Positions 6,577 through 53,799 of a stretch of DNA of 64,000 nucleotides are shown piece after piece. Below the pieces are notes generated by a model, which was not told the DNA's origin, searched no databases, and worked only from the letters and a program-made list of their open reading frames with translations. The number at the start of each line of letters is the position of its first letter. The stretch's first letter is position 1. Origin of the DNA: Trueperaceae bacterium (GTDB lineage: Bacteria > Deinococcota > Deinococci > Deinococcales > Trueperaceae); assembly GCA_034521815.1 (NCBI GenBank), contig JAXHLW010000001.1:279907-343906 (forward strand), written 5' to 3'. The translations under genes were made by a program, and so were the position numbers.

Positions 6577-8010
6577 GTGGCAGACGCACCGATGGAGCAT
6601 CCCGACGCCGGCAAGCTGACCGGCATGGAGCACGAGAAGCAGTACGACTTCCAGCTTCCCGAATCGTACTTCTACAAGTCCGAAAAGGGCCTGAACAAGC
6701 GCGTGATCGAGAAGATCAGCTACTTCAAGGGCGAGCCCCAGTGGATGCTCGACTTCAGGCTGAGGGCGCTCGAGATCGCCGAGAAGAAGGGCCCGCCCAA
6801 GTGGGGTCCCGACCTGTCCGGCTTGAACTTCGACGACATCTACTTCTACATCCGTCCCAACGAGCGCCAGGGCACGACGAGCTCGTGGGACGAGATTCCC
6901 GCGGAGGTTCGCGAGACCTACCGTCGGCTCGGGATTCCCGAGGCCGAGCAGAAGGTCCTCGCCGGCGTGGGAGCCCAGTACGAGAGCGAGATGGTCTACC
7001 ACAACCTCAAGGAGGAGTGGGAGAAGCTCGGCGTCATCTTCCTGGACACCGACACCGGCCTCAAGGAGCACCCCGAGATCTTCCGCGAGCACTTCGCGAC
7101 CGTCGTCCCGCCCGAGGACAACTACTACGCGGCCGTGAACAGCGCCGTCTGGTCGGGCGGCTCGTTCGTGTACGTTCCTGCCGGCGTCGACGTCGACGTT
7201 CCGCTGCAGGCGTACTTCCTGCTCAACGCCGAGAACATCGGCCAGTTCGAGCGCACCCTGATCATCGTCGAGGAGGGCGCCAAGGCGCACTACATCGAGG
7301 GCTGCACCGCGCCGACCTACAACTCGGACAGCTTCCACTCCGGCGTGATCGAGATTCTCGCCAAGGAGAACTCGAAGGTTCGCTACTCGACGATCCAGAA
7401 CTGGTCGCACAACGTCTACAACCTCGTCACCCAGCGCGCCATGGTCTACGACAACGCCAGCATGGGCTGGCTGGACGGAAACCTCGGCTCGAAGGTGACG
7501 ATGAAGTACCCGAGCTGCTACCTGGTGGGCAACGGCGCGCACGGCGAGGTGCTGTCCATCGCGTTCGCCGGCGACGGTCAGCATCAGGACGCCGGCGCCA
7601 AGGTGATCCATGCGGCGCCGAACACCACCAGCTCGGTCGTGTCGAAGTCGATCTCGAAGGGTCAGGGCACCAGCAGCTACCGCGGCCTGGTCCAGATTCA
7701 CGAGGGCGCCACCAACGCGAAGTCGAACGTCGAGTGCGACGCGCTGCTGATGGACGACACCTCGCGCACGAACACCTACCCGTACATCGAGATCAACGAG
7801 AAGACCGCGCACGTCGGCCACGAGGCGACCGTCTCGAAGCTGAACGAGGAGCAGATCTTCTACCTGATGTCGCGCGGCCTGGCCGAAGAGGAGGCGATGG
7901 CGCTGATCGTGCGTGGATTCCTCGAGCCGGTCGCGAAGGAGCTTCCGCTGGAGTACGCGGTCGAGCTGAATCGCCTGATCGAGCTCGAGATGGAAGGGAG
8001 CGTCGGCTGA
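6577..8010 (+). CDS. sufB: Fe-S cluster assembly protein SufB
   Basis: AGVGAQYESE, GQFERTLII, YIEGCTAP, TMKYPSC, HEATVSK, ELPLEYAVELNRLI...EGSVG. Confidence 0.97.
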   Translation: MADAPMEHPDAGKLTGMEHEKQYDFQLPESYFYKSEKGLNKRVIEKISYFKGEPQWMLDFRLRALEIAEKKGPPKWGPDLSGLNFDDIYFYIRPNERQGTTSSWDEIPAEVRETYRRLGIPEAEQKVLAGVGAQYESEMVYHNLKEEWEKLGVIFLDTDTGLKEHPEIFREHFATVVPPEDNYYAAVNSAVWSGGSFVYVPAGVDVDVPLQAYFLLNAENIGQFERTLIIVEEGAKAHYIEGCTAPTYNSDSFHSGVIEILAKENSKVRYSTIQNWSHNVYNLVTQRAMVYDNASMGWLDGNLGSKVTMKYPSCYLVGNGAHGEVLSIAFAGDGQHQDAGAKVIHAAPNTTSSVVSKSISKGQGTSSYRGLVQIHEGATNAKSNVECDALLMDDTSRTNTYPYIEINEKTAHVGHEATVSKLNEEQIFYLMSRGLAEEEAMALIVRGFLEPVAKELPLEYAVELNRLIELEMEGSVG

Positions 8011-50857: not shown

Positions 50858-51886
50858 GTGAGTTCGGACGATTCTGGAGCGACCCGCAAGCGCCGCCACG
50901 TCGAAGCCTGTCTCGAGGCGCCCGTCGAGTACCGGACGCGCACGACCGGGTTCGAGGCGATCGACCTGCCGTACCGAGCGCTGCCCGAGACGAATCTGGG
51001 CGCGATCGATCCGTCGGCCTCGTTCCTGGGCAGGCGCATGTCGGCGCCCCTGTTCGTCGGCGCGATGACGGGCGGGGCCGAGCTGTCGGCAAGCCTGAAC
51101 CGGAACCTCGCGGTCGCGGCGCAGCGCGTCGGGGTCGGGATGATGCTGGGCTCTCAGCGCGTGATGCTCGAGACCCCGTCGGCAGCGTCCACCTTCGCGG
51201 TTCGGCGCCACGCGCCGGACGTCCCGATCCTCGGCAACCTCGGCGCCGCCCAGCTGAACCTGGGCTACGGCGCGGCCGAGATCGTCCGGGCCATCGACGC
51301 GGTCCAGGCCGACGGCCTGGCGCTGCACGTCAACCCGCTTCAAGAGGCGATGCAGCTCGGCGGGGACGGTGACTTCGCGGGCCTGCTCGCCAAGCTCCAG
51401 CGGCTGCCCGCCGAGGTGGGGCGACCGCTGGTGCTCAAAGAGGTGGGTCACGGGCTGGACGCCGGCACCGTCGCGAGCCTGTCCACCGCCGGATTCGCCG
51501 CGTTCGACGTGGCGGGTGCCGGAGGGACCTCGTGGGCGCGGGTCGAGGCGTGGGTGCGGTGGGGCGAGGTCCGTAGCGAGGATCTCGCCGAGTGGGGCGT
51601 TCCGACGTTGACCGCGTTGCGTTCGGCACGCGTCGCGGCGCCCGGTGTCGACCTGATCGCGTCGGGAGGCATCCGCTCCGGGCTCGACGTCGCGAAAGCG
51701 ATCGCGTCGGGCGCGTCGTGGTGCGCCGTGGCGCTGCCGTTGCTGCGGCCCGCGACCGAATCGGCCGAGGCCGTGGAGGCCGTGCTGCGGCGCTTCGTCC
51801 ACGAGCTCAGGATCGCGATGCACGCCGCCGGCGCCGCCGACCTCGCGGCGCTGCGCGGCATCGAGACGGTGCCGCGCCCTGGCTGA
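50858..51886 (+). CDS. fni: Type 2 (FMN) isopentenyl-diphosphate isomerase
   Basis: RKRRHV, AMTGG, GSQR, HVNPLQE, KEVGHG, GAGGTSW, ASGGIRSG. Confidence 0.95.
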   Translation: MSSDDSGATRKRRHVEACLEAPVEYRTRTTGFEAIDLPYRALPETNLGAIDPSASFLGRRMSAPLFVGAMTGGAELSASLNRNLAVAAQRVGVGMMLGSQRVMLETPSAASTFAVRRHAPDVPILGNLGAAQLNLGYGAAEIVRAIDAVQADGLALHVNPLQEAMQLGGDGDFAGLLAKLQRLPAEVGRPLVLKEVGHGLDAGTVASLSTAGFAAFDVAGAGGTSWARVEAWVRWGEVRSEDLAEWGVPTLTALRSARVAAPGVDLIASGGIRSGLDVAKAIASGASWCAVALPLLRPATESAEAVEAVLRRFVHELRIAMHAAGAADLAALRGIETVPRPG

Positions 51887-51983: not shown

Positions 51984-52274
51984 TCATGTCTGGTGGCCTT
52001 GCCGTAGGAGCTCGATCACGCGGAGGGCGTCGGGCCACGGGTCGGTGTAGAAGCGACCGTGCTGGTACGACACCACGTCCACGCCCGAGACGTCGAGGTC
52101 CCCGTAGAGACGCTCGAGGACGGGAAGATGGGCCGCGAGCTCGCCTCTGAAGTCGTCACTCTCCATCAGACGCGACGCCACGAGCTTCCGTCTGCCACGG
52201 AAGCGGAACACCAGCAGCAGCATCGACGCCTGCTGGAAGTAGAGGGGGTCGGGAAGGCGGACGTCGGTGGGCAT
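51984..52274 (-). CDS. Small hypothetical protein
   Basis: 96-aa ORF with globular composition and genome-like codons. Confidence 0.6.
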   Translation of the reverse strand: MPTDVRLPDPLYFQQASMLLLVFRFRGRRKLVASRLMESDDFRGELAAHLPVLERLYGDLDVSGVDVVSYQHGRFYTDPWPDALRVIELLRQGHQT

Positions 52275-52452: not shown

Positions 52453-52481
52453 TTGCGCGATCGCGCCGGACACCTTAGTAT
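52453..52481 (+). promoter_or_regulatory. Putative sigma-70 promoter of recA
   Basis: TTGCGC-N17-TAGTAT about 80 bp upstream of the AGGAGG RBS and ATG. Confidence 0.55.
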
Positions 52482-52563
52482 TTGAGGCATCGCCTCGACA
52501 CGCCGTTCAGGCGGCGTCGGAACGCACCCGGGGGCGCTTCGCGCGCCCGCTCAGGAGGACGTC

Positions 52564-53676
52564 ATGAACGACAAGACCACGGAATCGGTCGACCTCGCGG
52601 GCAAGCGCCGCTCGCTCGACGCCACCCTCGCCGCCATCGAGCGTCAGTTCGGGAAGGGTGCGGTGATGCGGCTTGGGGACGAGTCGCAGCGGGAGAAGAT
52701 CGCGGTGATTTCGACGGGGTCGATGAGTGTGGATCTGGCCTTGGGGATCGGTGGGGTGCCGCGGGGTCGGGTGGTGGAGATCTACGGTCCGGAGTCGGGT
52801 GGGAAGACGACGCTGGCGTTGCACATCATTGCGGAGGCGCAGGCGGCGGGGGGCGTGGCGGCGTTCGTGGACGCCGAGCATGCGTTGGATCCGAGCTACG
52901 CGGAGAACCTGGGCGTGAACGTGAGCGATCTGTTGGTGTCGCAGCCGGATACGGGGGAGCAGGCGCTGGAGATTACCGAGCTGTTGATCCGGTCGGGTGC
53001 GGTGGATGTGGTGGTGATCGATAGTGTCGCTGCGTTGGTGCCGCGTGCGGAGATCGAGGGCGAGATGGGGGATGCGCATGTGGGGTTGCAGGCGCGGTTG
53101 ATGAGTCAGGCGCTCCGGAAGTTGACGAGCGTGCTGGCGAAGTCGCGGACGACGGCGGTGTTCATCAATCAGATTCGCGAGAAGATCGGGGTGATGTACG
53201 GCAATCCGGAGACCACGCCGGGGGGTCGCGCCCTGAAGTTCTACGCGAGTGTCCGCATGGAGGTGCGTCGCAAGGGGGACGTGAAGGTGGGGGCGGACAA
53301 GGTGGGGAATCGGACGCGGGTGAAGGTGACGAAGAACAAGGTGGCTCCGCCGTTCAAGGAGGCGGAGGTGGAGATCATTTTCGGTCGGGGGATCGACAAG
53401 ATCGGGGATCTCCTGGGCATCGCGACGGATCTGGATGTGGTGCAGAAGAGCGGGTCGTGGTTCTCGTATGGGGAGACGCGTTTGGGGCAGGGCAAGGAGA
53501 AGGCGGGCGAGTTTCTCGCGGAGCGTCCGGAGCTGTTGACGCAGATTCGTAGCGAAGTGACCGAGCGGCTGAAACCGAAACCGAAGGAGGACGCGGAGCG
53601 TCGCCAGCAGGCGTCCGAGGAAACGGTCGATGCTGCGGTCGATGCGGAGGTGGACGCGGACACGATCGCGGCCTGA
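52564..53676 (+). CDS. recA: Recombinase RecA
   Basis: [68 protein letters not shown]. Confidence 0.99.
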
Positions 53677-53799
53677 TCGGCGCCAGGGTACTCGTAGGGC
53701 ATTCGACACGGGCAGTCGACCCGTACGGATCGGTAGGATGCACGCACTTCTCCCCGTTGTCGCGCGGGCCCGCCGGGCCGCGTCGCGAAAGGAGTGCCG

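Follow-up and report, generated by a model that had tools for sequence, protein, structure and literature searches.

The tufA and tufB genes of Salmonella and Escherichia coli evolve in concert by RecA-dependent gene conversion. Deinococcus deserti is reported (Dulermo et al. 2009) to contain two functionally different RecA proteins together with a lexA-imuY-dnaE2 cassette, the extra recA copies being plasmid-borne and encoding a different protein. The nuclease NucS cuts G/T, G/G, and T/T mismatches (PMC6159521) and suppresses homeologous recombination (PMC5290159). The DNA considered here is a window of 64,000 nucleotides (nt) from a Trueperaceae bacterium (GenBank assembly GCA_034521815.1, contig JAXHLW010000001.1, positions 279,907 to 343,906 of the forward strand). 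The gene in question is a recA gene at positions 52564..53676 of this window, for which a first-pass annotation made from the letters alone had reported an abrupt switch to G/T-rich, C-poor codons. The gene is one of two recA copies in the genome, and the unusual codons coincide with a segment that is nearly identical in the two copies.

The second recA gene of the source assembly (denoted G000) is located at C13:1275596-1276714 and encodes 372 amino acids (aa). Its translation matches the RecA and RecA_C profiles with scores of 457.9 and 75.4 bits, respectively. The sequence GPESGGKT, which we take to be the Walker A motif, and the loop L2 region are intact in the translations of both copies. 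A core of 952 nt is common to the two genes and contains 5 differences, all of which are synonymous. No alignment is obtained outside of this core, which applies to the first 24 and 19 codons, the last 29 and 36 codons, and all of the flanking DNA of the window copy and the second copy, respectively. The parts of the window gene are as follows.

52564..53676, + strand: recA, the copy with the candidate SOS box, 370 aa, one of two in G000; open reading frame (ORF) with full-length Pfam matches to RecA (PF00154, 455.8 bits) and RecA_C (PF21096, 75.6 bits)
52564..52635, + strand: copy-specific N-terminal 24 codons in the ordinary C-ending style (alignment of the copies, codon profile)
52636..53587, + strand: gene-conversion tract, 952 nt, gene nt 73-1024, codons 25-341, with G/T-rich, C/A-poor silent sites
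53588..53676, + strand: acidic C-terminal tail specific to this copy, with the stop codon, beyond the tract (alignment of the copies)

The second copy is found in a cinA-recA-rny-prs locus, where a CinA-like ORF ends 49 nt before this recA gene and rny overlaps its stop codon. The earlier remark that recA stands alone, without cinA-ligT partners, is correct for the window copy only, since the second copy sits in cinA-recA-rny. Contigs assembled from four public sequencing runs, each of a different study, match the core from 52636 onward, and before this position their loose end is the N-terminus of the second copy (RKALETTLLQ). One contig (run X3, 52469-52665) bridges the junction of the window copy itself. 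The window stretch is partly free of contig cover in runs X3, X6, and X17, which carries no meaning, and the RNA-library contigs of X17 over the core and the recA 3' end are no proof of transcription.

G000 (2.63 Mb, 13 contigs, 71% GC, 83.5% complete) was compared with 40 relatives (G001 onward), of which G013 and G020 are single-contig genomes. Outgroup lineages are denoted f3 (including G026 and G034) and f4, and a Deinococcus-like lineage is denoted f2. The genomes compared are related, and the lineage counts given below are therefore not independent. Genes were called with a crude frame-plot caller based on the GC content of third codon positions (GC3), which gave 1679 calls covering 73% of G000. 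The codon style was expressed as the third-position GC skew (skew3) and as the keto (G, T) minus amino (C, A) content of third positions (KM3).

The odd codon style is real and highly non-random. The hand counts given previously are exact (32 G and 10 C at 52741-52800; 16 G and 22 C at 7021-7080). The third positions of the whole recA gene are composed of G, C, T, and A at 0.623, 0.232, 0.129, and 0.016, respectively, compared with G (G3) at 0.41 and C (C3) at 0.48 in the genome. The first 29 codons have a C3 of 0.62 and a G3 of 0.31, and the remainder has a G3 of 0.65, a C3 of 0.20, and a T3 of 0.14. The GC skew in 300-nt intervals ranges from +0.33 to +0.41 within recA and from about -0.08 to +0.13 in the flanks. 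The skew3 of 0.457 ranks first in the genome; the mean of the 1677 other calls is -0.082 with a standard deviation (sd) of 0.115 (z 4.7). The KM3 of 0.508 corresponds to a z of 5.3 against the same 1677 calls, and the maximum among 1309 genes of at least 200 aa is 0.294. The second recA gene is the runner-up in the skew ranking, with the same statistics. A scan that was free of gene calls (26180 intervals of 900 nt, sd 0.052) gave a skew of +0.362 for the recA locus, and only two tuf genes are higher. Whether recA is a genome-wide outlier, and which genes share its style, was the check proposed in the first pass, and it proved decisive.

The C-ending codons of recA are reduced in every family relative to the genome (GGC from 0.61 to 0.20, GTC from 0.51 to 0.06, GCC from 0.43 to 0.10, and CCC from 0.35 to 0). 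G-ending synonyms are raised wherever such a synonym exists, and A is reduced. T is raised in the two-fold pyrimidine families (GAT from 0.16 to 0.67) and takes the place of C at the first positions of Leu and Ser codons, with TTG raised from 0.05 to 0.41 and AGT from 0.02 to 0.22. From these shifts across the codon families, the coding strand favors keto over amino bases. The signal is synonymous and the downstream gene is ordinary (skew3 of -0.16), in agreement with the first-pass annotation. In a 15-codon profile of the gene, the style changes from codons 16-30 to codons 31-45 and is relaxed again past codon 345. The switch is therefore as abrupt as had been described, but its coordinates are different: the change is tied to gene nt 73 (52636) rather than to ~52650, which is 14 nt inside the 5' edge of the tract, and the style weakens past 53587 rather than at 53665. 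Because the style starts and stops with the shared core, it belongs to the tract and not to the gene.

The same confinement is observed when genomes are pooled. The third positions in the cores of both copies from G000, G005, G019, and G020 consist of 1736 G, 399 C, 393 T, and 18 A, versus 127 G, 137 C, 25 T, and 26 A in the tails that the copies do not share. The odds ratio is 5.5 with a p of 1e-40, or of 1e-35 if each genome contributes a single copy. The skew3 values of the co-directional neighbors are -0.15 to -0.38 for rny and -0.16 to -0.32 for korA, and those of recA are +0.32 to +0.75. The single-copy recA genes of the f3 and f4 outgroups have a skew3 within about 0.12 of that of rny. 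A skew is lacking in single-copy recA both in genomes with a skewed tuf (f4, G030) and in the NucS-positive genomes G023 and G024. The style of recA is kept in at least 4 genera while the silent sites turn over. Between genomes, 21-31% of the four-fold sites differ, and G/T and C/G account for most of the four-fold differences in the recA cores, where C is at 5-17%.

Two full-length recA copies were also found in G005, G013, G019, and G020 among the 40 relatives, at conserved loci. The cores in these four genomes are 929-981 nt in length with 0-4 differences between copies, and the RecA identity between genomes is only 77-88%. A near-identical core with non-homologous flanks is present in all five two-copy genomes. 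The recA-rny order was found at 8 loci of the family and at all 8 of the f3/f4 outgroup loci examined. The recA-korA order was found at 7 loci in 4 genera (G000, G005, G006, G008, G016, G019, and G020). The five paralog pairs are each monophyletic by genome in the RecA tree (Shimodaira-Hasegawa-like approximate likelihood ratio support of 98-100). The loci are orthologous, yet the copies cluster by genome, and this combination indicates concerted evolution by gene conversion. The sequence comparisons thus identify the two-copy recA as a conserved system under concerted evolution by inter-paralog gene conversion. Gene order and the tree place the duplication as old, older than the species, with cinA-recA-rny as the ancestral copy and the window copy as the korA-side duplicate.

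RecA groups within its own family and order, and the best matches outside of the order are at most 68% identical. Many of the fragmented assemblies of the family have N- or C-terminal pieces of recA at contig ends, which is expected when a repeat collapses during assembly. The charge of the C-terminal tail ranges from -2 to -7 for the korA type and from 0 to -9 for the rny type. No consistent difference in charge between the two tail types was found.

The same style was found in the genes for elongation factor Tu (EF-Tu). The two tuf genes of G000 (C13:312767-313981 and C13:518418-519632) are 98.7% identical over 1219 nt, and both outrank recA in the scan; they had been hidden by the GC3 filter of the gene caller. 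The third positions of tufB have a G3 of 0.59, a T3 of 0.34, a C3 of 0.06, and an A3 of 0.00. The tufA gene sits between fusA (KM3 of -0.09) and rpsJ (KM3 of -0.13), and the pooled ribosomal operon has a C3 of 0.534 and a G3 of 0.376 (3720 codons). The C-rich operon around tufA shows that the style is opposite to the translational optimum and independent of the transcription unit. The GC3 of tuf is about 0.65 versus about 0.9 in the neighbors. The tuf copy after fusA contains three in-frame stops in the G000 assembly, which correspond to either indel errors or a broken gene. An unfiltered rescan of 14775 ORFs of at least 90 aa found a KM3 above 0.33 only in the two tuf genes, the two recA genes, one insertion sequence (IS) fragment, and a few small ORFs. 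The style is not found in any repair gene, contrary to one possibility raised in the first pass, and mobile DNA is represented by this one fragment. The IS fragment (C13:220750-221352, - strand) has a G3 of 0.61 and a C3 of 0.17, is presumably transposase-like from a name read off its translation, and has no second copy in the assembly.

The style of tuf varies among the genomes. Third positions are G/T-only in G000, G001, G003, G004, G005, G019, and G020 (KM3 of 0.86-0.97). Intermediate values were obtained for G015, G018, G012, the f4 genomes (KM3 of 0.35-0.68; 0.05 in G035), and G030 (0.59). The tuf genes are ordinary or C-rich in G013, G017, G021, G014, G026/G034 (C3 of 0.72), f2, and f5. 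The copies are 99.4-100% identical over exactly the coding sequence in all ten of the genomes tested, skewed or unskewed. Since tuf pairs are homogenized with or without skew, conversion is necessary here but insufficient for the style. Between skewed genomes 11-38% of the four-fold tuf sites differ, and the differences are G/T in 20 of 24, 51 of 52 (G019 vs G020), and 62 of 66 cases. This confinement of the turnover almost wholly to G/T indicates that the constraint is persistent and acts per site.

NucS is present in G000 at C1:206463-206780 (PF01939, 88 bits). In this genome, the search for MutS1 gave nothing above the cut-off, and that for MutL gave no match. In the 41 genomes, neither MutS1 nor MutL was detected in genus g1, G012, G015, G016, G018-G020, G022-G024, and G026/G034, and they are present elsewhere. 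NucS is exactly complementary to MutS1/MutL within the sampled Trueperaceae and is also found in G030, three f2 genomes, and G028. It was not found in the f4 genomes, and the f3 genomes G026 and G034 have neither NucS nor MutS1/MutL. Among the Trueperaceae with an assessed tuf, all ten NucS-positive genomes are skewed and all four NucS-negative genomes are unskewed. Outside of this family, G030 (NucS-positive, tuf skewed) versus G026/G034 (NucS-negative, unskewed) is in agreement with a link to NucS. For recA, the genomes with NucS and two copies are skewed (G000, G005, G019, and G020), those with NucS and one copy are unskewed (G023, G024, and G030), and the one with two copies and no NucS detected is unskewed (G013). 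NucS is the leading candidate for the base discrimination, and its set of substrates repeats the keto/amino split at the silent sites.

Other lineage factors were considered and rejected. An asymmetry in recognition by MutS is not the source of the bias, since none of the skewed Trueperaceae gave a match to MutS1 or MutL. A nuclease of the AddAB/RecB type (PF12705) is present in skewed and unskewed genomes. An ImuB-like gene was not found in G019, G020, f4, or G030.

Starting from the observed duplication, the tract, the confinement of the style, the tuf parallel, and the sharing of the operator described below, we infer both that conversion causes the bias and that NucS takes part in it. An old duplication would have placed a second recA gene beside a 2-oxoacid:ferredoxin oxidoreductase gene, with its own promoter and a LexA-type operator. 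Recurrent conversion would then homogenize about 950 nt, a length that covers almost all of the RecA fold, and would leave the N-terminal 10-25 codons and the C-terminal tails specific to each copy. In this tract only, silent sites would be pushed to G/T and off C/A on the coding strand. NucS/EndoMS, in the place of MutS/MutL, would cut G:T, G:G, and T:T and spare A:C, C:C, and A:A. Of the two strand combinations possible in the heteroduplex, one would be degraded and the other spared, leading to a G/T bias on one strand. The flagged stretch would accordingly be the conversion tract of a recA pair and its style a by-product of strand-asymmetric, keto-biased conversion, with NucS as the candidate discriminator. 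From the sequence comparisons this explanation is considered somewhat probable.

Several points weigh against it. Identical copies without the style are present in G013 (recA and tuf), G026, and G033 (tuf). The f4 genomes G027, G031, and G039 have a skewed tuf and no NucS, and the f2 genomes G025, G029, and G033 have NucS together with MutS/MutL and no skew. The link to NucS holds in only about five of seven lineage-level contrasts. The strongly skewed recA genes occupy one part of the tree, so that a single origin is possible both for the korA-locus duplication and for the skew. A keto-specific nuclease would bias the outcome only with a fixed strand polarity of the heteroduplex, and the direction of replication cannot supply this polarity for recA because the copies are inverted in G019 and G020 and one of the two in G000 is probably head-on. 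The recA genes of G013 and G017, both NucS-negative, are still about 0.25-0.28 more G-skewed than rny. The between-species spectrum cannot separate biased transmission from mutation associated with conversion.

Such mutation could arise if the coding strand were single-stranded in recombination or in R-loops, with C to T and A to G deamination and with GC pressure moving the four-fold sites to G. The keto-rich strands of animal mitochondrial DNA are explained by single-strand deamination. The bases depleted here are exactly C and A and those enriched are G and T, on one strand only; the pattern is limited to the repeated segment, and the T:C and G:C odds increase to a similar extent. However, tuf would need a roughly 30-100 fold asymmetry in rate within a 1.2-kb gene, and its co-transcribed neighbors are untouched. 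Species differ from one another by G/T transversions and hardly at all by C/T or A/G changes, although short-lived C/A states could mimic this. G013, G026, and G033, which are equally good converters without the style, are also left unexplained, and a mutational origin is considered unlikely but not far-fetched. Selection for recombination proficiency, which is quite unlikely, extends to the paralog pair a link that the first-pass annotation drew to the preference of RecA for GT-rich DNA in vitro. The cores would have been selected towards, or have run away to, G/T as the preferred single-stranded substrate of RecA, with the effect that the two copies remain homogenized. The near-total exclusion of C and A (tuf C3 of 0.01-0.06) would imply a strong effect per site, and one site adds little to pairing. 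The unskewed pairs of G013, G026, and G033 are equally homogenized (99.8-100% identity), and break-initiated conversion would be expected to overwrite the better initiator allele. In favor of such selection are the coincidence of the style with the tract and its presence in only two converting gene pairs.

The template and the transcript were proposed as targets of selection in the same annotation. A template depleted of G, which is oxidizable, and of T, which forms dimers, or a C-poor mRNA with weak folding or with escape from C-seeking factors, would allow the production of RecA and EF-Tu even after heavy damage. RecA and EF-Tu are both relevant to recovery, and each is encoded by a duplicated gene. 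The low G/T content of the template strand is confirmed, but the copy-specific tails of this transcript have ordinary codons and no repair gene has the style, which besides recA is limited to the tuf pair and one IS fragment. The mRNA is somewhat less structured (-0.364 for the recA core and -0.327 for tuf versus -0.443 +/- 0.045 kcal/mol/nt for 60 other genes), but these values are inside the range of the genome. The 5' end of recA, where structure matters most, is not recoded. With ordinary single-copy recA genes in the sister lineages and Deinococcus-like genomes without the style, selection of this kind is very unlikely. Horizontal replacement of the allele from a donor with G-rich codons is hardly credible. 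Such an event would be consistent with the abrupt boundaries of the stretch and with codons unlike those of the genome, and a recombination tract was in fact found, but its donor is not foreign: the matching sequence is the second recA of the same genome. The same style is seen in tuf and persists across genera. RecA nests in its family and order, and the tree that had been suggested as a check for transfer has no discordance, the copies pairing by genome within the family.

Further candidates for the origin of the style were rejected. Runs of at least three or four G and G-quadruplex motifs are not above those in 1000 synonymous shuffles, and selection for such structures was rejected. Runs of four or more G number 18 in recA versus 15.2 +/- 1.6 in the shuffles, a fraction of 0.065 of which attain this count, and 11 in tuf versus 16.0 +/- 1.7, fewer than expected. 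Translational codon optimization was rejected since the style is not common to the ribosomal-protein genes. An effect of the class of stress and repair genes was rejected since the next most skewed genes encode membrane proteins, a PPK2-like protein, PurH, and similar products (names read off the translations). An effect of the replication strand on recA was rejected, with the copies inverted in G019 and G020 and the GC skew of G000 suggesting one co-directional and one head-on copy.

The remaining features around the window copy are listed below.

52473..52487, no strand assigned: candidate LexA (SOS) operator, palindrome CCTTAGTATTTGAGG, 76 nt 5' of the recA ATG (conservation)
52553..52558, + strand: AGGAGG ribosome-binding site, 5 nt 5' of the recA ATG (sequence reading)
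50858..51886, + strand: upstream neighbor with the fold of a flavin mononucleotide (FMN)-dependent dehydrogenase, read as a type-2 isopentenyl diphosphate (IPP) isomerase; ordinary codons
53794..55647, + strand: korA-type neighbor, alpha-type subunit of a 2-oxoacid:ferredoxin oxidoreductase (POR, POR_N); skew3 of -0.16, ordinary codons

The AT-rich palindrome, of the type CCTTA-N5-TAAGG, is located upstream of the window-type recA in 13 genomes including G000, with variants in G002, G004-G009, G012, G013, G015, G019, and G020. In G023 and G024 it precedes the only recA detected, and it is absent upstream of the cinA-linked copies. The only other site in G000 (C1:107842-107856) is before ImuB-like and DnaE2-like genes, and a site is found at these genes in G005 as well. 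The best NCBIfam match of the DnaE2-like protein is "error-prone DNA polymerase" with 766 bits, below the model cut-off. A third site, 2-4 nt before a LexA gene of 206-207 aa, was found in 7 of 10 same-genus genomes. The LexA protein of G010, the only one subjected to the Pfam scan, contains LexA_DNA_bind and Peptidase_S24. The regulon defined by the palindrome across Trueperaceae (loci L172-L174 and L178-L180) comprises lexA, the window-type recA, and the imuB-like/dnaE2-like genes. A reversed-pattern control gave 0 matches in genus g1. LexA was not found in G000, at 83.5% completeness, using either TIGR00498 or the same-genus LexA as the query. The palindrome is read as the candidate SOS box of the lineage and the window recA as a putative damage-inducible paralog.

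An ORF of 96 aa with gene-like GC3 and no Pfam match is found between the isomerase-like gene and recA (51984-52274, - strand). Antisense ORFs of 400 aa and 486 aa are found over recA (52507-53709 of the window, - strand) and over tufB. These are read as by-products, since sense codons ending in G or T leave the mirror frame without codons that start with T and hence without stops. The most C-skewed gene call in G000 (C13:300859-302247, - strand) has a C3 of 0.72 and a G3 of 0.17 and is presumably epimerase-like, from a name read off its translation. Other repeats of G000 are multi-kb in length, 96-98% identical, and free of skew (C13:1667675-1683560 and C12:16766-31987; C6, C7, and C10 versus C12/C13), and two of these are tandem 8-kb units. 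These multi-kb duplications probably reflect strain variation or duplication during assembly and not a biological feature.

It is possible, though rather doubtful, that keto-biased conversion of this kind is a new form of biased gene conversion, in which lineages that rely on NucS would filter the heteroduplex of paralogs by strand combination, and the converting genes would be pushed to silent sites with only G or T on one strand, against translational selection (EF-Tu C3 of about 1%). If so, the same would be expected in other groups that bear NucS, such as Actinobacteria and Archaea, and the codon usage of converting genes would record the specificity of a mismatch nuclease. The recA gene, duplicated and self-converting, would be shaped by the reaction that RecA catalyzes. 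Selection on translation does not readily account for silent sites opposite to the codons of neighboring ribosomal-protein genes, and such sites offer a clean natural system for non-adaptive drives. The presence of a recA pair in much of Trueperaceae affects marker-gene phylogeny, where recA is normally a single-copy marker. The recA and tuf pairs also affect the assembly of metagenome-assembled genomes, since contigs break at recA and tuf. The pairing of an SOS-boxed copy with a cinA-recA-rny copy bears on the wiring of the damage response in a radiation-resistant phylum.

In the literature searched, which covers few subscription journals, no mention was found of a dual recA in Trueperaceae, a keto-skewed converting paralog, or a link between NucS, biased conversion, and codons (including PMC3564903 and PMC12985086). 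Long-lasting conversion has been described in methanogens (PMC4632066), and a term search of that report found GC content, codon usage, and skew unmentioned. The recA pair resembles tufA/tufB in having two dispersed copies that are near-identical over the coding core and have different flanks, and G000 contains such a tuf pair too. It differs from tufA/tufB in that conversion acts on recA itself and is limited to the core, with the tails and promoters remaining distinct, and in that the style is G/T-only and strand-asymmetric. The proposed bias would be similar to GC-biased gene conversion as a non-adaptive drive that acts on heteroduplex mismatches and mimics selection at silent sites. Unlike that process, which favors G and C over A and T on both strands, T is raised, C and GC3 are lowered, and the effect is limited to the coding strand. 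The system shares with that of D. deserti the phylum, the presence of more than one recA gene, and an SOS-type mutagenesis cassette, and it differs in that both Trueperaceae copies lie on the chromosome, occupy conserved loci, and have identical cores. G000 and the relatives that share its skew are similar to lineages with non-canonical NucS/EndoMS mismatch repair in having NucS and no detectable MutS1/MutL. NucS is described as a corrector of replication errors and a barrier to homeologous recombination; here it would be tied, with two exceptions, to a bias in conversion.

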